Below are positions 1,326 through 35,961 of a DNA stretch of 64,000 nt, piece after piece. How positions within the stretch are numbered: position 1 is the stretch's first letter; every line of letters starts with the position of its first letter. Below the pieces are notes generated by a model. That model ran no database searches. It saw nothing but the letters and a program-made list of their open reading frames with translations, and was not told the origin of the DNA. A program made the position numbers and the translations under genes. The DNA lies in IMG/VR virus record IMGVR_UViG_3300022916_000011, positions 13,966 through 77,965 of that record. One strand, 5' to 3'. This stretch comes from a virus.

Positions 1326-1856
1326 TTACTTAGTTTTGACCAAACCAGACGATTTCGGTGGACACCATAACTTACCACGATCACCTGGACGTTTCTTCTT
1401 CTGGATGGGGTTATTCAACCACCCTTTCAGACTCTTCTTTTCTTTGGACAGTTTCTTGCTGCGCTGAATACCTGTTAGAATCTGGAACTTCTCGTTTCTC
1501 ACTGACTCAGCATGTTTAATAGAGACACCTTTGGAATGACAGTATTCACACAAACCGTCTGGAGCATAACACGTTTCATACCCGATAAAACCGGAACGTT
1601 TTTCGTCTGGTGGTGGTTCAAAATGGTAGGAAAGCATACCCAACCGTTTTCTCATTCTCTTGGAAGGTCTAATGCTACGAACTGAAGCATTCCCACAATG
1701 GACACACCTAGCAGAACCGATGTGATCATTGGACCCACTACCAGTAGCAGTTGTAACCCACGCAACCCTTGGAACCCACTGTTCTACATCTTTCGGGTCT
1801 GGACTAGGGGGGTTCAACCAATCTCTTCTTGGACGTATCATCTGAGTCGTACCCAT
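1326..1856 (-). CDS. hypothetical basic protein with CxxC pairs
   Basis: ORF with GAGGT SD; CVHC and CEYC motifs. Confidence 0.7.
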   Translation of the reverse strand: MGTTQMIRPRRDWLNPPSPDPKDVEQWVPRVAWVTTATGSGSNDHIGSARCVHCGNASVRSIRPSKRMRKRLGMLSYHFEPPPDEKRSGFIGYETCYAPDGLCEYCHSKGVSIKHAESVRNEKFQILTGIQRSKKLSKEKKSLKGWLNNPIQKKKRPGDRGKLWCPPKSSGLVKTK

Positions 1857-2222
1857 AACTGGAACCTCAATTAAGATTTTTAAGAAATTAACTGCTTGGA
1901 ACCATCAAACACCCCCACCATACAGAAGGTTTTAATGGCACCAAGCAATGACCTTGCTATTAACTACCTTTTAATGGATACAAGCGTAGTTCTTATAGAG
2001 GAATAGCAAAGTCATTCAAAAAAATTCTTTTTAAATGGATGCTCTGTCGGGTGAAATTCTTTTATCATGTACGTGTGGAACCCTAATCAAAACCTAACCT
2101 GTTTCACTACCCTGGAACCAAATGGTTGACCAGTATAAATAGTGGAGTCAAAACCGAGCGCAGCACAGAGACTCTAACTGGAGTAGGTTTGCTGAGTAAC
2201 CACGTAATTGGAATATCAGCTA

Positions 2223-2588
2223 TCACCCTTTATTTCTACACATCATCTTGGCTACATCACCACTGTCAACCGCACTTTCTCTGTCGGAACGGGTTGTCGC
2301 ATAACCCCAATGGAATACCGTGTCTCTCAACTTACTTACCTCATGCAACGGAAGCGTTTTCAGTCTTGCGGTAAAACAGTACATGGAACCTAAAGAATAG
2401 GTCAGTCTCTCTTTGGAAGCAGAATAGCTAAGGTCTTGAATGATAGCAAAAATGGAGGGTAATTTGAAGATACTATCAAAGCGGAAAGACTGTGTATCTT
2501 TGGAGTCAAACAACCTGACTAGATTGGTCTGGATTACGTTTTCAAGATGTGCTGATGAGATTAGAACGAAAGGAACCACCCTTGACAT
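2223..2588 (-). CDS. hypothetical protein
   Basis: ORF downstream of strong promoter; ATG 2588 with AGGT SD. Confidence 0.5.
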   Translation of the reverse strand: MSRVVPFVLISSAHLENVIQTNLVRLFDSKDTQSFRFDSIFKLPSIFAIIQDLSYSASKERLTYSLGSMYCFTARLKTLPLHEVSKLRDTVFHWGYATTRSDRESAVDSGDVAKMMCRNKG

Positions 2589-2757
2589 TGCAACCTGACG
2601 ATTACAACCACCCCTATGGATATTCTTCTCAAACCGCAAAGAAAAGGAACTAGACTTGCACCCCGTTGAATCAGTGACTTTCAAACTACCCATTCTGGAT
2701 CACCCCCTTTCTGAATGCTTTATTTTGTCGCTGGAAACTTCATTTGGTACTAACTTA

Positions 2758-2786
2758 ATACTACCAGAGTTCATTGGAAATGTCAA
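2758..2786 (-). promoter_or_regulatory. sigma-70-type promoter
   Basis: TTGACA-17 nt-TAGTAT on minus strand, AT-rich upstream sequence. Confidence 0.75.
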
Positions 2787-3621
2787 GTAAAAAAATGTAT
2801 AAAAATTATCTTTCTTGGGATAAAATTAAGTTAATTTCTAGGATAAAAAGTAACAGAAGGAATACCAATAATACTATGGACCTCGGAAGTAATCACTTGA
2901 TCTTCTTTTCCTAACATCTTCTTATATTAGATAAGGTGTCTCTTTGGCTATTACCATTGATGTAGGATGTACGTGCGTAGGTGATTCTTAGGGTTAGAGC
3001 TAGGATGTATGTTGATTAGTGCAGTTGTGTTAGGACATAGGTTAGCAGAGAGATTCAAAGGAATAATGTTGGGAGGTTAGGCTTAGTGCATAGAGTAGAG
3101 GGTTAGGAGTTGAGGAGTAGGTTATAAAGGTTTTTCTAGGAGAGGTATAAGAGTACAGGAATGAATATGCTGAGTATGCTCTGGATGGTAGCCCGTTCCT
3201 AAACATTGTTATGTTTCCGATGGTGTAGGCTGTAATCGATCCAAACTGCCTCTACAGAGGAATCTCAATATGATAAATCCTAATTTCAAAATGGACTGGA
3301 AATGTGAATGGGTATGCGAAAATACCCAATATATACCCAATAGTCCTTGATTCCATACCCAATCTTATACCCAATGGGTAGCCAAATATACCCATTTTTA
3401 CCCTCCATATTACCCAAAATAGCTCATTATATATAGTAATAGACACCTTGGAGCTGGAAAGATACCCCCTGAAGGGTAAGGGTCGCATAAATCGACCATG
3501 CGCTCGATCTTCAATGATTTCAACCACTTACAAAAGTATTTCCAACGTCAAACGCATCACCTCGTGCGTATTTGAGATTTTCCAAATTAAACCTTGATTT
3601 TCTCCTAGAAGTAGAGTAATG

Positions 3622-3634
3622 TAAATCATTGATT
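3622..3634 (-). promoter_or_regulatory. IHF consensus site
   Basis: AATCAATGATTTA matches WATCAANNNNTTR exactly. Confidence 0.45.
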
Positions 3635-4582
3635 AATGGACTATTTAAGTGGCTTACATGCCGATGCAGGACTTAAATACACAATAACAGATAGCCAAAT
3701 CACCTGTCAATCGGAAACTTTACCATTTCATTGCGGTAGGGAAGGGTAACTTAGGATGATAGTATAAAATAAAGGAATATTGGATGGCTTATAGTTAGGA
3801 GAATAGTGAGAGTTTGGAGGTTCGGACAAAGGAAACATTCCAACATCCCAAAAATTTTTTAGTCGCATAGGGTTTTGAATTTTTGGAAATGCGGAACTAT
3901 CGGATATCACTACATATATTATTTTTGGGGAAGAAGGGAAATTAGGCTCATATTTATTGGAAATACTAGCCTAAACCCCCCTTTATTCTCTCACTATTCT
4001 TGATTTACCCCTTCCTAACCCAAAATATAGATAATAGTGAGGTAAAAGAAGGGAAGTTAGGACCAAGTATATTAGACTATACTCCTTCACTTTTACATGT
4101 GTCTAGGGTTAAGGAGGGTTAATCAAAGTTTGGATATAGATTAAGTTTAAATATGCCATACTTTATGCCTAAGCCCAATGTTAAATTAACTAAATAAGTT
4201 AGGATGATGTTATGTTTTTCTTTATTCCTAAGTCTTAGCTAAACTTTGCTAGATTTCTAGGAATAACCCCCCTGAGTTAATTTTTAATACTTCCAAACTT
4301 TTTATCATAATAATCTTAGAGTTTGGAAGTTAGGAAATAGAATGGAAATAGGCCCCCACCCATACCCATGCATTACTTTTATCGTGGACGTTGATTGTGG
4401 TGGGGCTCAGACCCCTAGAGTTTGGACTCTGCAATTCATTTATACCCCTGATCCAAACTATCTAAGGTGATCCGGTGATTTTAGTACATTGTATAGAGTT
4501 AGGATATAGTTTGAAAGGGGCAGAATGTACCCCCACCCTCTTCCAAATGTTCGGAAGTTCGGCTGTTACTTTTTCTTAAGCC

Positions 4583-4616
4583 AAAAAAATACCCCCTCTA
4601 TGGTAGCAGGGGGTTT
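4583..4616 (-). terminator. intrinsic terminator
   Basis: ACCCCCT/AGGGGGT stem followed by U-tract, just after the stop of 4625..5011. Confidence 0.7.
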
Positions 4617-4624
4617 GTGGAATG

Positions 4625-5011
4625 TTAAATTTCTCGGGACACCCATTTGTCTTTATCGGTACGGAGGGTGATTACCGACTGGAACGAAACCAGTTTGAAA
4701 TCTTGACCGGAACCAAAAAAGACCACCCCATCAACCAGGATTACCGACCCCTGATCACGCATTCCCGCAAGGTGCGACCAGAGCGTGGACTTAACCTTCA
4801 GGTTGAAGTGATCGAGGACCCTCTTGTTCAGGACGGTCAACGCTTCACGGGTGTACTCATGACGATGGAGCGCACTGTTCAGGACCTGTGTACGGGTGTC
4901 GTACTTATGGATATTCACCATACCCCGCACCCCAAAATCAGGACGTTTAGCTTGGAATGCTCTCGTTACCGCAGTATGGACCGCATCGTTACCTCTGTCG
5001 TGATGTTTCAT
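4625..5011 (-). CDS. hypothetical protein, paralogue of 7129..7533
   Basis: shared blocks TRAFQ, NIHxYxTRTQVxNS, NKRxLxHFNLxxKST, SHLAGMxxQG, KWV; GAGGT SD before ATG 5011. Confidence 0.85.
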   Translation of the reverse strand: MKHHDRGNDAVHTAVTRAFQAKRPDFGVRGMVNIHKYDTRTQVLNSALHRHEYTREALTVLNKRVLDHFNLKVKSTLWSHLAGMRDQGSVILVDGVVFFGSGQDFKLVSFQSVITLRTDKDKWVSREI

Positions 5012-5067
5012 GGAATGACCTCGCTTTCTTGGGTGTTGAGTGAGGAACCCCCTCACTTCTTACTTAT

Positions 5068-5096
5068 AGTATATCAGGGTATGCAGGAAATGTCAA
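5068..5096 (-). promoter_or_regulatory. near-consensus sigma-70 promoter
   Basis: TTGACA-17 nt-TATACT on minus strand; hairpin AGTGAGG/CCTCACT follows at 5039-5057. Confidence 0.85.
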
Positions 5097-5137
5097 CAGA
5101 AAAATGCATTTTTCTTAGGAACCATGCACTTTTCTTT

Positions 5138-5530
5138 GGCTATTTTTTATACCCCCCCTTGTTTGGAAGTTCGGCTACTTTTCACTTAATTTCTTTTTTA
5201 AGGAAGTTAGGAACTCTTTTTTAAAGGAATTTTTTAGGATTATTAAACACTTACTTTTCGGACTACTTTTACTATTTTTTTCTTTTAAGGAAGTTAGGAT
5301 TCTTTTTAAAGGAAATTTTTTAGGCTTTCTTTTTCTTTTAAAATTTTTTAGGCTTTCTTTTTAAGGATTTCTTTCTTTTAGGAAGTTAGGCTGTTACTTT
5401 TTTTAAATTTTAGGATTCTTTTTAAAAGAAAACTTTTTAAGGATTTTAGGAAAGGCCCCCTCCGAATCTCAAAAATGAGTTAAACTTTTTTAGGAAGTTA
5501 GGAAACACCCCCACCCTAAAAAACAGCTTC
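5138..5530 (+). repeat. T-tract low-complexity field punctuated by AGGA/AGGC/CGGA
   Basis: repeated units such as ttttaggatt, ttttaggcttt, aggaagttagg. Confidence 0.8.
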
Positions 5531-13839: not shown

Positions 13840-14369
13840 TGGAAAAAGTTAAAGTAATAGTAGTGAACGGATTGTCACGTTCTGGTAAAGATTCATTTAT
13901 TGATGCTATACGCAAGAAAGTTCCTGCTTTAATCGAACATTCAACAATTTATACAGTTTGGGATTCATTACTTTATCTTGATATGATAAATCCTATCAAG
14001 AAAGGTCCAGAAGAGAGAGAATTTCTTGCTGCTGTGAAACAAGCATGGATCAATTACAATGAGGGTCCTTTTAAAGAAGTAGTACATATGGCAGATGAAT
14101 TAGAAAAGGAATACGCTTTCACATCTAATATAGACAGGGTTTTGTTAGCAGTTCATGTTAGAGAACCGGAAGAAATGAAGAAATTGAAGAGACACTTTGA
14201 AGATAGAATGTTTACTGTGAAAGTTACTAGACCTGAAATAACAGCGCAACCAGGAGATGAAAATGTGAACAATTGGAATTACGATTTTGAGGTGTATAAT
14301 GAGGGGGATTTGGAATACTTAGACACATTAGTTGATGCATTTATTAACTTCTTGAATGAAAGGAAGTGA
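13839..14369 (+). CDS. P-loop nucleotide (dNMP) kinase-like protein
   Basis: NGLSRSGKD Walker A; HVREPEE; YDFEVYN. Confidence 0.7.
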   Translation: MEKVKVIVVNGLSRSGKDSFIDAIRKKVPALIEHSTIYTVWDSLLYLDMINPIKKGPEEREFLAAVKQAWINYNEGPFKEVVHMADELEKEYAFTSNIDRVLLAVHVREPEEMKKLKRHFEDRMFTVKVTRPEITAQPGDENVNNWNYDFEVYNEGDLEYLDTLVDAFINFLNERK

Positions 14370-30911: not shown

Positions 30912-32597
30912 CTATCTGTCTGTATCTTCACCTCTACCATCCTTACCGTCAAGTTGTCGGGAAGAACCTTTTACATTATCAGTAATACCTTTAGCAGAAG
31001 GATCAGCATCAGATTTGCCAGGATCTCTATCTCTGTCTCTAGCATTATTTTGTCTAATATCTTTTGTGGATCTATTTTCAGTTTGATCGTTTGCTTTTAA
31101 AATATCTTCTTCTGTTAATTTATCAATGGCATTGCGAATATCTACCATTAAGGCGTCAGGTAAATCCGGTAATGCTCTTTTAGCTACTGTTTTCATTAAT
31201 TCTTTTTTGAAGGTAAGTTCAGGGATTATACGATCAGCCATAATAGCATTTTCAAGACTTTGACTGAGATCATCAATGCTGAAGTCAGTGGACCTTGTAA
31301 TTTCCACCTTATTAAAATCTTTCTCTTTATTTTGCCATTTCAACCAATATTTAATAATACCTAGTTCTGTCTCTGTGAGATTAGAGCTTTTCTTACCTAG
31401 TACAAGACCTAGTTGTTGAAATTCATAGCGCATTGCTACCCCTGATCTAGCAGCACTACCACTAGTTCTTTGGGCATTAAGACCAGACAGATGAGCCAAT
31501 TGAAATGTTTCTTCTACCTTTTTGTCTACCCAATTTAGAATAGCATCTATAGGTTCATTTACTTCTGCATTTAGCCAATCTGGTTTTCCTGCTTCACCTA
31601 GAGATGGATCAAATTCAAGAATAGCCGTAACTCCAGCTTCATTATTAATCTCTTCACCTTCTCTAGCCATAGGACGTCTTGCTTGAGGGAAACCAGCAAA
31701 TTTGATAACTTCTTCTCCATAAGAAACATTTCGAATAATACTAGCCGTAATTCTTGATATTTCTTTAATATCAGATTCACCAATGTAAGGATCTTCAATA
31801 TTCTTGATATTTTGAAACCACAGGAAAGGTATTTCATTTAATGGATTAGGTCCTTCTGAAACCATAATTGGATCTTCTGTGGAGGTTAATGCACTTACAA
31901 TTTTACCTGGATGTTGTGCATATTTATTATCTCCAGGTTTAGGTTCATAATCTGAAGTATCTGTATGTTTATGAATCCTCATAGTGGTTCCACCAGAAGT
32001 TTCAGGAATAGTCCATATTTCCCATTTATCTGGCCACCAAAGTAAATACCTATTATCGTAATCAAACAATTTGAGATAGGTCAGTTGAGGTCTATTAGTG
32101 CGTTCATCCCTTTCATGTTCCCAATCTAATATATTAGGTAATGTAAAAGTAGAGCAATAAGGATAAATGCCATCAGCTACATCTTCTTTGAGGATTTGAT
32201 TTGTACTTGTAGGTTTGTCAACTAAGATTCCTACTGCACCGTATATACCTGCTAATTTTTGAGATTCATTCAAATACACATCAAAATTGGTTCCATATAG
32301 ATCAGCATCTTTGGTAAATAACTTCCACAATTTATCATCTACTAAAGGACCTAATTCTCTCAAAGCAGGCTTTTCTGTAAGGTAGAAATTAAATAGATCA
32401 ATAACGATACTGGAGTAATTGAAACAGGTTCCTTCATCTTGTCTAGATTTCCAATTTTTTTGGGATTCTCTCATATGTTTTTGTAATGCAAAATTTATAA
32501 AACGAGTACCTCCAGAATAAGCTAGGCCCCAAAATGTCCAATCGCTTATCATATCTGCATAAGTGTCGTGGGTTTCTAATAGTTGTTCTACATCCAT
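30912..32597 (-). CDS. portal protein
   Basis: follows TerL; AYSGG, DADLYG, ILVDKP, SGVAMRYEFQ; SPP1-like size. Confidence 0.85.
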   Translation of the reverse strand: MDVEQLLETHDTYADMISDWTFWGLAYSGGTRFINFALQKHMRESQKNWKSRQDEGTCFNYSSIVIDLFNFYLTEKPALRELGPLVDDKLWKLFTKDADLYGTNFDVYLNESQKLAGIYGAVGILVDKPTSTNQILKEDVADGIYPYCSTFTLPNILDWEHERDERTNRPQLTYLKLFDYDNRYLLWWPDKWEIWTIPETSGGTTMRIHKHTDTSDYEPKPGDNKYAQHPGKIVSALTSTEDPIMVSEGPNPLNEIPFLWFQNIKNIEDPYIGESDIKEISRITASIIRNVSYGEEVIKFAGFPQARRPMAREGEEINNEAGVTAILEFDPSLGEAGKPDWLNAEVNEPIDAILNWVDKKVEETFQLAHLSGLNAQRTSGSAARSGVAMRYEFQQLGLVLGKKSSNLTETELGIIKYWLKWQNKEKDFNKVEITRSTDFSIDDLSQSLENAIMADRIIPELTFKKELMKTVAKRALPDLPDALMVDIRNAIDKLTEEDILKANDQTENRSTKDIRQNNARDRDRDPGKSDADPSAKGITDNVKGSSRQLDGKDGRGEDTDR

Positions 32598-32609: not shown

Positions 32610-35156
32610 TTATTTCCAATAAAGTTTTGATGGTGGCCTTCTTACGTATCTCGGTTTATTCACCCATTGTAAAAATTGACTTGTTGAGTCTACCATATCG
32701 TCATGTTCAGTAGAAGGGAAATTTGTTATTTGATATTCATAATCAGATAACCAATGGGCTTCTTCTGGAAGAAATACCTTTCCAGCTTCAAATAAAGTTG
32801 TTACTGCGTCAAAGCGTAATATTTTGTTCACATTGTTGGTACTGATGGGGATAATGGGAATTCTAGTTTCCATTTTTATATCTTGAATTAAAGATTGCCC
32901 ACTAGCTCTATCTTCAACCAATACCCCTGTGGCTTTGTGAACTTCGTATAGTTGTAAAAATCTTTTTTTAAGTTCTGGAAATTCCATTCTTTTGTTTATT
33001 ACATCTAATAGGTAATATCCATTTTCACCTATACCCCACACTGTGGCAGCAGATGGGTCACTTATTTCTGAATCTTTAAATGCCGTATCCCAACTTATAA
33101 TGATTCTATTTAGTTTTGGTAAAATTGAATATCTTTTTAACCAGGCATGTTTTACCATACCCCCTTCTCTACTTACTGGATGCTGTTGGTACTGAGCATT
33201 CCATTCGTAAGAACCAATAATTTTTTCTATAGCATTTAAAGATGACTGAGGATAAGCTTCTGGCCATAGAGCATCCCCAACTTCTCTACCGAGAATATCA
33301 TTCTCTTCTGCAATAGCTTTGAGATCAAGAATTGTCCAATCTTCTTGTGGATGTTCCTTTAGTACATAACCGCTAAGATCATTTTCATGCCATCTAGTAT
33401 TAATCATAATAATTCTATTATCAGGCATCAATCTAGTATAAGCAACTGCTCTGTACCATTCGTGGAGGTCTTTTCGAATTGTTTGGGATTCTATTTCTTT
33501 TCTGGATTTGATAGGATCATCTATAATAAAGCAGTTGTGGGTTAAAATGAGATAGTTATCGTTAGTTATCGTTCTTTTATTGTGTACTGCATGTGCAAAG
33601 AAGTTACTTGTTCCCTCAACTTGGATGTCATAGACTGGGATCGGATCTGTGCTAATTCTTTCAATTTGGGAAATGGTGTCCTCTTTGATTTGTGATGAAT
33701 TATATGACAACTGAGACATAGTGTTATTAGATTTTCTGGTGCATTGTTGGTCTTGTCCCCATCTATGTGATGTAGTAAGAGAGTTTCCCTCTTTGTTTTG
33801 TTCCCTGTATTGCCATCTACCGTCGATACTTTCCCCATTTGAATATTGCATACAGCGCATTGATTGTTGTCCCTCTCTAGTATTAAAGGGCGCATTTTGC
33901 GTGATATGATGTTGTATTCTTTCCCATGCCGATAATTGGAATTCTGTGTTCCAAGCATTTTCTGAGAATGTGTTTGATTGGCACATTCTCGGGAGCAATG
34001 CTGCGTTAAGTAGCTTAATGGGGAAAATGTTTTCCCACATTGAGGACATATTATTTTTGGCATTTTCCTTCGCTCTCTGGACTCTTTTCTGCATTTGTTG
34101 GAACAGAATTTTCGTATAGGCGTTTCTGTTGTTTTTCCGCAGATTACACATTTTCTTTTGTTTTTTACAGCGTGATGTTTTTGGGAACATTCTATTGAAC
34201 AATACATATCTTTGTGCTTTCTTTTTATTGCTGCACGTACTTCGTAATTCTTTTTTACTACTTCTTTTCCGCACCATGCACATGTTATTTTTGTATCGGC
34301 TTTTCGAAGCATATGATAGCAGGATCTGCAATGAAGAGAGCCTATAGTTTTTCTTTTTCCACACTCCGGACATACTTGGGATTTTCTTGTCTGTAATAAT
34401 TGTGATGGTGTCTCCCTTTTGTATATCTTTCGTTTTAATGTAACCTTGTCCCTGTATGAAGAATTTGTGCTCTCCAGTTGCTCTAATGTAATTCCCTGAA
34501 TTTGTGGTGATTTTGTAGAGTTCATTTGTAATTTCCTTTCTAGCAGCTATTATTTTTTTGTATACTAAAGTGTTACTAGTATGGTCTAAAGATAATATTT
34601 TTATTTCTTTGCTAGATAATAACTCTACGAGGGTAGCAATGTCAACAGTTTTTATTGAAGAATCAATCTTCACATTTAGCATTGTTTCTGCTGGAAGACA
34701 ATTTGCTCCACGTCCAGTGGCACCACCACCAACACTGATGTTAAAGTACTCTCCACCCTGAATAGTAGAGAAATGAGACACAGATTTTGAATCTGAAGAA
34801 ATAGCACAACCAGGAAATATTTCTCTATGTAAATCTGAGTCAACTAAATTTCTGACTTTTCGTCCAACATCGTCACCACGTTTCTGATTGTAAGTTGACC
34901 ATATAATTTGCCAATCTGGATTTCTACCTATGAACCAGGCAGGAAACATTTCAGATGCTAATAAAGTTTTACCATGCCTAGGGGGAGAAAAAATTAGTAA
35001 CCTTCTAATATCTCCTCTCTCTACAGCTTCCAGATACATGGCAATCATTTCATGCATTAACCCAATTTTATATTTTGGGTACATTAAACGTGTGAAGCTT
35101 AAAAGTTTAGAGTGCGCAAATTGTTCGTTGGAAGGACCTTTTTTAATTGCCATCAT
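32610..35156 (-). CDS. terL: terminase large subunit containing an intein
   Basis: PPRHGKT Walker A, FIIDDP Walker B, TRWHENDL, QYQQHP, SWDTA, HDDMVDS. Confidence 0.92.
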   Translation of the reverse strand: MMAIKKGPSNEQFAHSKLLSFTRLMYPKYKIGLMHEMIAMYLEAVERGDIRRLLIFSPPRHGKTLLASEMFPAWFIGRNPDWQIIWSTYNQKRGDDVGRKVRNLVDSDLHREIFPGCAISSDSKSVSHFSTIQGGEYFNISVGGGATGRGANCLPAETMLNVKIDSSIKTVDIATLVELLSSKEIKILSLDHTSNTLVYKKIIAARKEITNELYKITTNSGNYIRATGEHKFFIQGQGYIKTKDIQKGDTITIITDKKIPSMSGVWKKKNYRLSSLQILLSYASKSRYKNNMCMVRKRSSKKELRSTCSNKKKAQRYVLFNRMFPKTSRCKKQKKMCNLRKNNRNAYTKILFQQMQKRVQRAKENAKNNMSSMWENIFPIKLLNAALLPRMCQSNTFSENAWNTEFQLSAWERIQHHITQNAPFNTREGQQSMRCMQYSNGESIDGRWQYREQNKEGNSLTTSHRWGQDQQCTRKSNNTMSQLSYNSSQIKEDTISQIERISTDPIPVYDIQVEGTSNFFAHAVHNKRTITNDNYLILTHNCFIIDDPIKSRKEIESQTIRKDLHEWYRAVAYTRLMPDNRIIMINTRWHENDLSGYVLKEHPQEDWTILDLKAIAEENDILGREVGDALWPEAYPQSSLNAIEKIIGSYEWNAQYQQHPVSREGGMVKHAWLKRYSILPKLNRIIISWDTAFKDSEISDPSAATVWGIGENGYYLLDVINKRMEFPELKKRFLQLYEVHKATGVLVEDRASGQSLIQDIKMETRIPIIPISTNNVNKILRFDAVTTLFEAGKVFLPEEAHWLSDYEYQITNFPSTEHDDMVDSTSQFLQWVNKPRYVRRPPSKLYWK
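33534..34700 (-). mobile_element. intein (389 aa) inserted just before TerL Walker B
   Basis: GAN|CLPAET start, ATGEH block B, VYDIQVEGTSNFFA block F, ILTHN|C end. Confidence 0.9.
33566..34525 (-). CDS. zinc-finger HNH endonuclease in the +1 frame inside the intein
   Basis: many CxxC and CSxxC motifs; HHIDGDKTNN..NLITLCLSCH..HH; SD GAAAGGA 8 nt before ATG. Confidence 0.85.
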   Translation of the reverse strand: MNSTKSPQIQGITLEQLESTNSSYRDKVTLKRKIYKRETPSQLLQTRKSQVCPECGKRKTIGSLHCRSCYHMLRKADTKITCAWCGKEVVKKNYEVRAAIKRKHKDMYCSIECSQKHHAVKNKRKCVICGKTTETPIRKFCSNKCRKESRERRKMPKIICPQCGKTFSPLSYLTQHCSRECANQTHSQKMLGTQNSNYRHGKEYNIISRKMRPLILERDNNQCAVCNIQMGKVSTVDGNTGNKTKRETLLLHHIDGDKTNNAPENLITLCLSCHIIHHKSKRTPFPKLKELAQIRSQSMTSKLREQVTSLHMQYTIKER

Positions 35157-35961
35157 CTCCCTTTCGTCCTACCAATTCACCTTCAAGAATGTCATCTCCA
35201 CCACCTAATTTTTCAGCTAATAATTTGCCACCTGGAGTATTCATTAATTTTGAAGGTGTGATTTGTGCAGCTTCTATGATGGCGTCTGTCTCCTCTTTTG
35301 AATGGACAACATCTATTCTTCCTCTGATCATATTTTTATTTTCATTGTAAGTATCTGGAAGTAAACATCTGGCAGCAAAAATGATTGCTGCTGTGTCCCC
35401 CGATGCCACTTTTGCTAATAGACTGGATTCTACTAAGTCCTTTTTCTCCTCATCAACAGATAACATTTCATCTTTGAACGACTCATCTATCTCCATCCAT
35501 TTTACAACTTTACCCCTAGATATACCGACTTCATTACATGCTTCTGTCAAGTTGAAACTGGAATATCTGTAAGCTTCTTTTAGAGCATCTTTCAGAACCC
35601 TTTCATCTTCGTTGTTAGTTATGATAACCTTTTTGTCTATTTCCTTTTCCTCAGTTACCATTGTTGGTTTGTAGAATGCGGCAGGATCTTTCTGTTTTCT
35701 TATATTGTAATATTGCTCTTTGAACATGGGATCATCTTCAGCCCATGTGTAAATAGTATTTTGAGATTTGACTCCGGCTTTCTTCAAGGCTTTAGAAATG
35801 GTCATTCCCTTACTTTTGTAGTGATATAGGAAATTTCTTTTCTTAGTCCTTATCTCTATTATATCTTCTTCAGATAATTCTTTTTTAGGTTTAATGCGTT
35901 TTTTAAGCCGTTTTCTATTGGAAAATGCTTTATCATTTGTATCAATTCTTTTAGTTCCCAT
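35143..35961 (-). CDS. terS: terminase small subunit
   Basis: position; two HTH-like repeats; GDTAAIIF motif. Confidence 0.75.
   Translation of the reverse strand: MGTKRIDTNDKAFSNRKRLKKRIKPKKELSEEDIIEIRTKKRNFLYHYKSKGMTISKALKKAGVKSQNTIYTWAEDDPMFKEQYYNIRKQKDPAAFYKPTMVTEEKEIDKKVIITNNEDERVLKDALKEAYRYSSFNLTEACNEVGISRGKVVKWMEIDESFKDEMLSVDEEKKDLVESSLLAKVASGDTAAIIFAARCLLPDTYNENKNMIRGRIDVVHSKEETDAIIEAAQITPSKLMNTPGGKLLAEKLGGGDDILEGELVGRKGDDGN

Follow-up and report, generated by a model that had tools for sequence, protein, structure and literature searches.

An intein in a viral terminase gene overlapped by an HNH nuclease reading frame, and its relatives in phages and metagenomes

The window analysed here is a stretch of 64,000 nucleotides (nt), positions 13,966 to 77,965 of the IMG/VR record IMGVR_UViG_3300022916_000011, and it contains a gene for the large terminase subunit (TerL) that is interrupted by an intein. 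The source is a viral record of 77,965 nt that was assembled from a metagenome, with an estimated completeness of 48%, and one intein and one HNH nuclease were counted in the whole of it. We read the interruption as a mobile homing element composed of two overlapping genes, the TerL intein and an HNH nuclease that would be translated separately from the +1 frame, and we assign this reading a probability of roughly 0.85.

In the mechanism that we favor, the class-1 intein, located immediately before the Walker B motif of TerL, would be translated within a continuous TerL precursor and would remove itself by protein splicing. Its two Hint halves would be joined by a linker of about 229 amino acids in the TerL frame, predicted to have no fold and to be constrained solely by the need to lack stop codons. 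A multi-zinc-ribbon HNH protein appears to be encoded in the +1 frame across this linker and is most likely translated alone, from an internal Shine-Dalgarno (SD) sequence and an ATG about 58 codons into the intein. The nuclease most likely cuts or nicks intein-less terL, after which repair would copy in the whole intein-plus-HNH cassette. Separate initiation of the nuclease, the competence of the intein to splice, and the target of cleavage are the three elements of this mechanism that we infer from the sequences.

A first-pass annotation of the window had proposed that the nuclease is made separately, that the intein frame serves as a disposable linker, and that the two together form a distinct architecture. 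Four lines of evidence support its view that the nuclease is encoded, and probably separately translated, in the +1 frame and that the TerL-frame middle is a disposable linker: conservation specific to one frame, substitutions whose periodicity switches, an internal start that keeps its position, and disorder predicted by AlphaFold2 (AF2). The proposal of a distinct architecture is not supported, as homologues in Brucella phages have been annotated and the class to which they belong has been described.

The terminase gene and its two overlapping frames

The TerL precursor is 848 amino acids long, and its frame is stop-free throughout. The features of the gene are listed below, with AF2 confidence given as pLDDT (predicted local distance difference test).

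32610 to 35156, minus strand: TerL precursor (phrog_38, E=1e-97; Pfam Terminase_6N and Terminase_6C)
34701 to 35156, minus strand: N-extein, TerL residues 1-152, with the Walker A motif PPRHGKT and GATGRGAN as its last residues
33534 to 34700, minus strand: class-1 intein of 389 amino acids, TerL residues 153-541, from Cys1 to the terminal His-Asn (Pfam, alignment, Foldseek)
34386 to 34700, minus strand: N-terminal Hint half, intein residues 1-105, blocks A and B (pLDDT about 88-95; conserved in the alignment)
33696 to 34382, minus strand: shadow linker, intein residues 107-335 in the TerL frame, about 229 amino acids, stop-free and unconserved (pLDDT, identity, stop count)
33534 to 33695, minus strand: C-terminal Hint half, intein residues 336-389, blocks F and G (pLDDT above 90 except in an insertion loop; alignment)
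33552 to 33593, minus strand: insertion of about 13 amino acids between intein blocks F and G, HAVHNKRTITNDNY (alignments)
32610 to 33533, minus strand: C-extein, TerL residues 542-848, beginning with the Walker B motif CFIIDDP and carrying the nuclease domain
34534 to 34540, minus strand: SD-like GAAAGGA, 8 nt upstream of the HNH start codon (most relatives have purine-rich motifs at the equivalent position)
33566 to 34525, minus strand: putative HNH homing-endonuclease open reading frame (ORF) in the +1 frame of TerL, 319 amino acids and a stop codon, containing an HNH domain at the C terminus and several zinc ribbons of the Cys4 type (phrog_1271)
33692 to 33772, minus strand: predicted HNH catalytic core, HNH residues 252-278, HH..N..N..C..CH...H (invariant columns, PDB profile alignment)

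The intein coordinates in the first-pass annotation proved exact and its splicing blocks are intact, with Pfam Intein_splicing (PF14890) scoring 64.4 bits on TerL against a cut-off of 35.8. The motifs run in the order Cys1 (CLPAET), TGEH, VYDIQVEGTSNFFA and THN|C, and the +1 residue is the Cys of CFIIDDP. The block residues VYDIQVEG..NFFA are also present and align with those of relatives. Cys153 of TerL, which is residue 1 of the intein, is invariant in 14-17 homologues, and in the alignment the junctions are identical in 17 loci. Foldseek matched the intein model to RadA, DnaB, RecA and other mini-inteins with a probability of 1.0 and a root-mean-square deviation of 2.3-3.4 Å. From the intact motifs, and from TerL being essential, we infer that the intein is competent to splice.

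The middle of the intein had been described as lacking a LAGLIDADG motif and reading like a shadow frame, and the results agree with this. It has no Pfam match, pLDDT is under 50 for residues 107-132 and 138-335 whereas the Hint halves on either side are modelled with confidence, and identity among homologues is close to that of the non-coding third frame. A LAGLIDADG remnant in the TerL-frame middle was rejected on the lack of a Pfam match together with the predicted disorder. The insertion between blocks F and G (HAVHN...DNY), which includes the HNH stop codon, looks like a second 'HN' terminus and is otherwise present only in P0005, the closest mini-intein relative.

The first-pass annotation had also placed a 319-residue zinc-finger HNH protein in the +1 frame, with GAAAGGA 8 nt before its ATG, and this was confirmed. 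The ATG lies at 34523-34525 and the stop at 33566-33568. The start is at TerL offset 631 (631 mod 3 = 1), hence the +1 frame, which is open from 34548 to 33569 and therefore for 8 codons upstream of the ATG as well. The ORF covers intein residues 59-379, on the same strand and between the splicing blocks, and it matches phrog_1271, 'HNH endonuclease', with E=1e-31. In the HNH family H252, H253, N261, N265, C270, C273, H274, H278, C223 and C226 are invariant or nearly so, the core columns H252, H253, N265, C270, H274 and H278 strictly. Across 14 HNH homologues 27 columns (Cys, His, Asn and others) are invariant, and the window copy has all 27. The AF2 model of the protein is mostly confident over residues 46-316, and the disordered residues 1-45 correspond to the part that overlaps the N-half of the intein.

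Several points weigh against reading the element as an active pair of intein and homing nuclease. The HNH ORF stays below threshold in Pfam, both for HNH_3 (20.2 bits, cut-off 24.8) and for HNH (16.4 bits, cut-off 21.4). Foldseek searches of the HNH model against the PDB returned HNH domains as the best matches (ScoMcrA, the Cas9 HNH domain and Cap5), with weak E values of 0.03-0.1, and alignment of the HNH profile to the PDB reached the HNH-type regions of DotN, IscB and McrA with E of about 1e-3. Because the matches to solved HNH domains are weak, the assignment depends on the PHROG profile and on the invariant HH..N..N..H residues and Cys ligands. Because the intein also constrains the coding sequence around the SD-like motif and the start codon, the conservation of these two does not count as wholly independent evidence. 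The element and its family members, as far as found, are known as sequences, and the source is an incomplete metagenome-assembled record (the 48% estimate given above) and not an isolate.

Homologous loci and selection on the two frames

Homologues were drawn from a phage collection, IMG/VR, metagenomes and genomes. Related loci were found with an alignment as the query; a single HNH protein query gave 2 weak loci. In tblastn searches the HNH protein matched 51 phage records at E<=1e-5, including Gordonia phage Clown, Synechococcus phage S-EIVl and 41 Brucella phage records in which the match falls under the TerL annotation. The weaker matches, among them those in haloarchaeal viruses, are HNH genes that stand alone. 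In Clown, S-EIVl and Brucella phage Pr alike, the TerL frame is open, the HNH is read in the +1 frame and the intein occupies the same position immediately ahead of Walker B. All strong matches in IMG/VR (L006-L022) and in metagenomes and genomes (L036-L039, L047) have the same +1 arrangement, and among these no in-frame version of the HNH was found. About 20 metagenomic contigs share the intein, the insertion site and the +1 HNH. The search for alternate-frame HNH ORFs in inteins, which the first-pass annotation had recommended, recovered the same +1 element in more than 20 loci.

The protein information in the overlap was compared in 17 loci, with the first invariant Cys and the last invariant His as the limits of the region. 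Mean pairwise identity was 41.7% in the HNH frame, 21.6% in the TerL frame and 22.9% in the non-coding third frame, and there were 24 invariant columns in the HNH frame and 2 in the TerL frame. When more similar loci are paired, substitutions are most frequent at the third TerL codon position in the exteins, whereas in the HNH core the maximum lies at TerL position 1, equivalent to HNH position 3. For L016 and L018 the values by TerL codon position were 0.13/0.03/0.62 in the N-extein and 0.47/0.22/0.15 in the HNH core. A check of both frames of the dN/dS type had been suggested; run on family members, it found the HNH frame conserved and the TerL-frame middle not. These comparisons of aligned loci show that, in the overlap, purifying selection acts on the HNH frame only. 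They were made on family members and not on the window's own copy, and a nucleotide search of the window terL region against the phage collection gave no match.

The TerL frame is nevertheless kept open. The genome has a GC content of 36-38%, and the third sense frame has more than 30 stops across the HNH stretch. A stop in the TerL frame arises when an HNH codon ending in T precedes an HNH codon starting with AA, AG or GA. There are 99 codons with such a start, and none of them is preceded by a T-ending codon, compared with 64 of the 220 other codons. Synonymous permutation within the HNH ORF, with the protein held fixed, produced a mean of 16 TerL-frame stops where 0 are observed, and not one of 20,000 permutations was open; resampling with the codon usage of neighboring genes produced a mean of 36. 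The chance estimate of about 1e-5 in the first-pass annotation, which had noted that both frames are open, was therefore conservative. Since no risky codon follows a T-ending one and no permutation stays open, the stop-free state of the TerL frame is selected at synonymous sites of the HNH gene. TerL-frame stops were absent from all 17 contiguous loci analysed. Permutations that stayed open were absent in loci below about 60% GC and made up 0.4-8% in loci at 61-71% GC. An origin of the overprint in a high-GC phage is plausible because only the high-GC loci have open synonymous permutations.

Two loci in which the gene is broken serve as negative controls. L023 (2265-4895) and L024 (3-2241) carry HNH homologues (E=4e-28 and 1e-21) in fractured TerL genes, where the N-extein and intein N-half run to a stop, the HNH is its own gene, and a new ATG begins the intein C-half and C-extein. 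The two TerL pieces of L024 are in different frames. The frame that is kept open in contiguous members has 39 stops in L023 and 22 in L024, against permutation expectations of 41±3 and 25±3. Because the stops in these split-intein loci match the permutation expectation, stops are avoided only where a continuous precursor is needed.

These results bear on two other explanations of the overlap. The first is that two compensating indels, from assembly or sequencing, conceal a canonical in-frame HNH intein, which the first-pass annotation had named as an outcome that would overturn its claim. The record is indeed a metagenome assembly. An artefact would not, however, yield stop avoidance at the level of codons, and the identical +1 arrangement recurs in more than 20 independent loci, among them the 41 independently deposited Brucella phage records, Clown and S-EIVl. 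We rejected it on both grounds and regard it as hardly credible.

The second explanation is that the HNH ORF of the window is a decaying relic, no longer expressed or active, so that the TerL/intein reading alone would still count. Decay is a common fate of homing endonucleases once they are fixed, loss of the HNH happens in this lineage, as the mini-inteins of P0004 and P0005 show, and the 13-residue insertion that holds the HNH stop is lineage-specific. Decay is nonetheless difficult to reconcile with 319 intact codons in so AT-rich a genome, where the third frame has accumulated its many stops, with the retention of 27 of 27 family-invariant residues, or with an intact SD sequence and ATG. 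We consider a relic highly improbable.

Translation of the nuclease

Internal initiation is the best reading of how the nuclease would be made because of the position of M1, the clustering of starts among relatives, their purine-rich motifs and the lack of structure in the RNA. In the window HNH, no start codon other than M1 lies upstream of the first zinc ribbon (C52, C55, C69), which is nearly invariant. Of 17 loci, 14-15 have an ATG or TTG at the corresponding position, inside a window of 4 codons that immediately precedes the intein's 'TTxxG' strand, against a background of 6.6% start codons per codon in the +1 frame of the exteins. This count was limited to the N-terminal region, as a column-wise count otherwise catches conserved internal Met and Leu residues of the HNH. 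The homologous start codons arise from differing TerL codons (N-E, V-E, L-V, D-G), usually with a purine-rich motif 5-13 nt upstream. The RNA around the SD sequence and ATG of the window is unstructured (z=+0.89), and no hairpin that would sequester the ribosome-binding site was found there.

Alternatively, the HNH could be made by a programmed +1 ribosomal frameshift, as a fusion of the N-extein, the intein N-half and the HNH. The HNH frame is already open 8 codons ahead of the ATG, HNH residues 1-45, which overlap the N-half of the intein, are disordered, the best start lies elsewhere in L006 and L007, and the Brucella copy is missing its N-terminal part. There was no sign of a conserved slippery site, however, and frameshifting at the A-run just upstream was rejected, as it leads directly into two +1-frame stops. 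The start codon and the purine-rich motif keep their position in most loci despite the differing TerL codons that overlap them, and L023 and L024, the split forms, carry the HNH homologue as a separate gene that starts at an ATG of its own. A frameshift is thus very unlikely, and separate translation from the internal start remains our preferred reading.

Alleles, mobility and known systems

The element is sporadically distributed, with empty alleles and signs of lateral transfer. Among the nearest relatives of the window TerL, P0007 (468 amino acids) is an intein-less allele. P0004 (603 amino acids) and P0005 (621 amino acids) have a mini-intein at the same site, share their Hint halves with the window and lack the HNH region; their overall identity to P0001 is 74-75%. 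P0006 (841 amino acids) is a full-length allele with a homologous shadow region. Between L011 and L012 the intein is much less diverged than the exteins, with differences of 3-6% in the HNH core and of 27-32% at extein wobble sites, which suggests that the intein-plus-HNH cassette was recently transferred laterally between high-GC phages or prophages.

These alleles also bear on whether the HNH might be a terminase-associated packaging factor, kept inside terL for co-expression, and not a homing nuclease. Every strong HNH relative sits inside or between TerL pieces, and a functional link with the terminase was raised for the brucellaphage protein (PMC4422536). The closest TerL relatives nevertheless do without the HNH, in P0007 with no intein and in P0004 and P0005 with a mini-intein. 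The HNH also occupies the place of an intein endonuclease domain, and the low divergence of intein plus HNH relative to the exteins in L011 and L012 is a signature of lateral transfer. Packaging HNH proteins next to terminase genes are small, about 100 amino acids, unlike this protein of about 300 amino acids with several zinc ribbons. A packaging role is unlikely, and a homing nuclease remains the interpretation that we favor.

The element is a member of a described class of non-canonical inteins, those with an out-of-frame nuclease, and a homologous example has already been published. In 2015 it was stated that the brucellaphage HNH lies out of frame within TerL (PMC4422536), and GenBank records of Brucella phages annotate TerL as 'intein present' with an overlapping 'putative HNH endonuclease' (e.g. 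NC_019447 F355_gp07/gp08). The Brucella phages (Tb, Pr, Wb and others) resemble the window in having a homologous HNH (34.5% identity over 72% of the query) in the +1 frame, an open TerL frame, the insertion site before Walker B, and the junctions Cys1 ... HN|C. At 228-235 amino acids the Brucella HNH is shorter than that of the window; the first zinc ribbons are missing from it, and its annotated start is a GTG located further downstream. The two also differ in GC content and host, and the window intein has the extra 13-residue F/G insertion.

Out-of-frame EndoVII-like and antisense nucleases in actinophage inteins were reported by Gosselin et al. (bioRxiv 10.1101/2025.01.02.630785), who propose that free-standing nuclease genes invaded inteins. 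As in the window, a same-strand nuclease is found there in another frame between the splicing blocks of a TerL intein; it is a short EndoVII-like protein in what was reported as frame 3, unlike the multi-zinc-ribbon HNH described here. Their supplementary table lists the Clown intein as 'HNH' with no out-of-frame flag. In our analysis the HNH of Clown (L001, TerL 1615-4374) is readable only in the +1 frame and is homologous to that of the window.

Phillips, DeSimone and Gogarten (bioRxiv 10.64898/2026.09.14.751524) described an out-of-frame LAGLIDADG nuclease in a cyanobacterial dnaX intein, and they credit Gorbalenya 1998 with the first report of an out-of-frame intein endonuclease. The dnaX intein shares with the window overlapping frames, a weakly constrained host-frame middle and purifying selection on the nuclease frame, and, as in the window's family, mini-intein and empty alleles coexist. 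It differs in its cellular host, its host gene, and in having LAGLIDADG in place of HNH. In phage ShiLan, Arsenault et al. 2025 (PMC11855218) found a 'hidden' out-of-frame HNH insertion in a DNA methylase. There too an out-of-frame HNH lies inside an open host ORF and its route of translation is an open question, but no intein splicing domain is present and the host-frame product is thought to stay as a loop.

In the fractured genes of Dassa et al. 2009 (PMC2677866), one of them a phage terminase, an independent nuclease gene separates the two halves of a split intein, and the authors predicted that HNH genes could make fractured genes. In both arrangements the nuclease gene stands where the intein endonuclease domain would be, whereas the window keeps its TerL frame unbroken, with a contiguous precursor on which the nuclease gene is overprinted. 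L023 and L024 have exactly the fractured-gene arrangement, with a homologue of the window HNH.

Beyond this published work, the constant +1 frame, the GC-dependent stop avoidance, the split-intein negative controls and the mini-intein derivatives appear to be additions, though most of this comparison is confirmatory; the window contributes a family member and comparative detail, not a new principle. By their record names, the hosts of the lineage include Actinobacteria, Cyanobacteria and Alphaproteobacteria, plus low-GC hosts. It is about an even call whether the contiguous members form one old and widely spread TerL-intein lineage, in which the HNH was always in the +1 frame and never became in-frame, and some 230 host-frame codons are selected only to stay open. 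Under the same proposal this lineage would interconvert with split-intein (fractured TerL) and mini-intein forms, and the overprint would probably have arisen in a high-GC phage before being carried to AT-rich phages, where it would persist only by continuous selection against stops. As far as the literature could be searched, no published account of this family-wide picture was found.

The element is of interest as a clean natural case of two proteins on one DNA stretch, with full purifying selection on one frame and, on the other, only the avoidance of stop codons. It illustrates how composite mobile elements form when inteins join with free-standing nuclease genes, and one family connects contiguous, mini and split inteins. 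Annotators will overlook the HNH gene or take such an intein for degenerate. If splicing takes place, the long disordered linker would show how much insertion a Hint domain may tolerate.

Other TerL relatives have inteins of different kinds. P0008 (606 amino acids) lacks an intein at the Walker B site but has a mini-intein that follows the lysine of Walker A immediately (HGK|C); because its intein lies elsewhere, the TerL family is invaded at two or more sites. Several relatives of 838-1408 amino acids carry LAGLIDADG domains (PF14528), and the TerL proteins P0021, P0030 and P0059, of about 840 amino acids, have PF14890 alone. The TerL of L029 (1190-3886), of the Pfam Terminase_3 type, has its intein at another position and, inside that intein, an HNH_3 ORF (2569-3210) in the +2 frame, and it looks like an independent case of an out-of-frame intein nuclease. 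HNH ORFs also lie out of frame in L028 (3001-3645, within an 836-amino-acid ORF at 2657-5164 without a Pfam match), in L058 (1905-2477, within a 658-amino-acid ORF at 799-2772) and likewise in L059, where the host ORF has 610 or more amino acids.

The terL gene of the window is flanked by two further ORFs on the minus strand. A 561-amino-acid ORF (30912-32597) adjoins it downstream and may, judged by position only, encode the portal protein. Upstream, the end of a 272-amino-acid ORF (35143-35961) overlaps the terL start by 14 nt, and position alone would make it a candidate for the small terminase. The terL block is oriented opposite to most of the window, and the GC skew switches sign at 32-36 kb.

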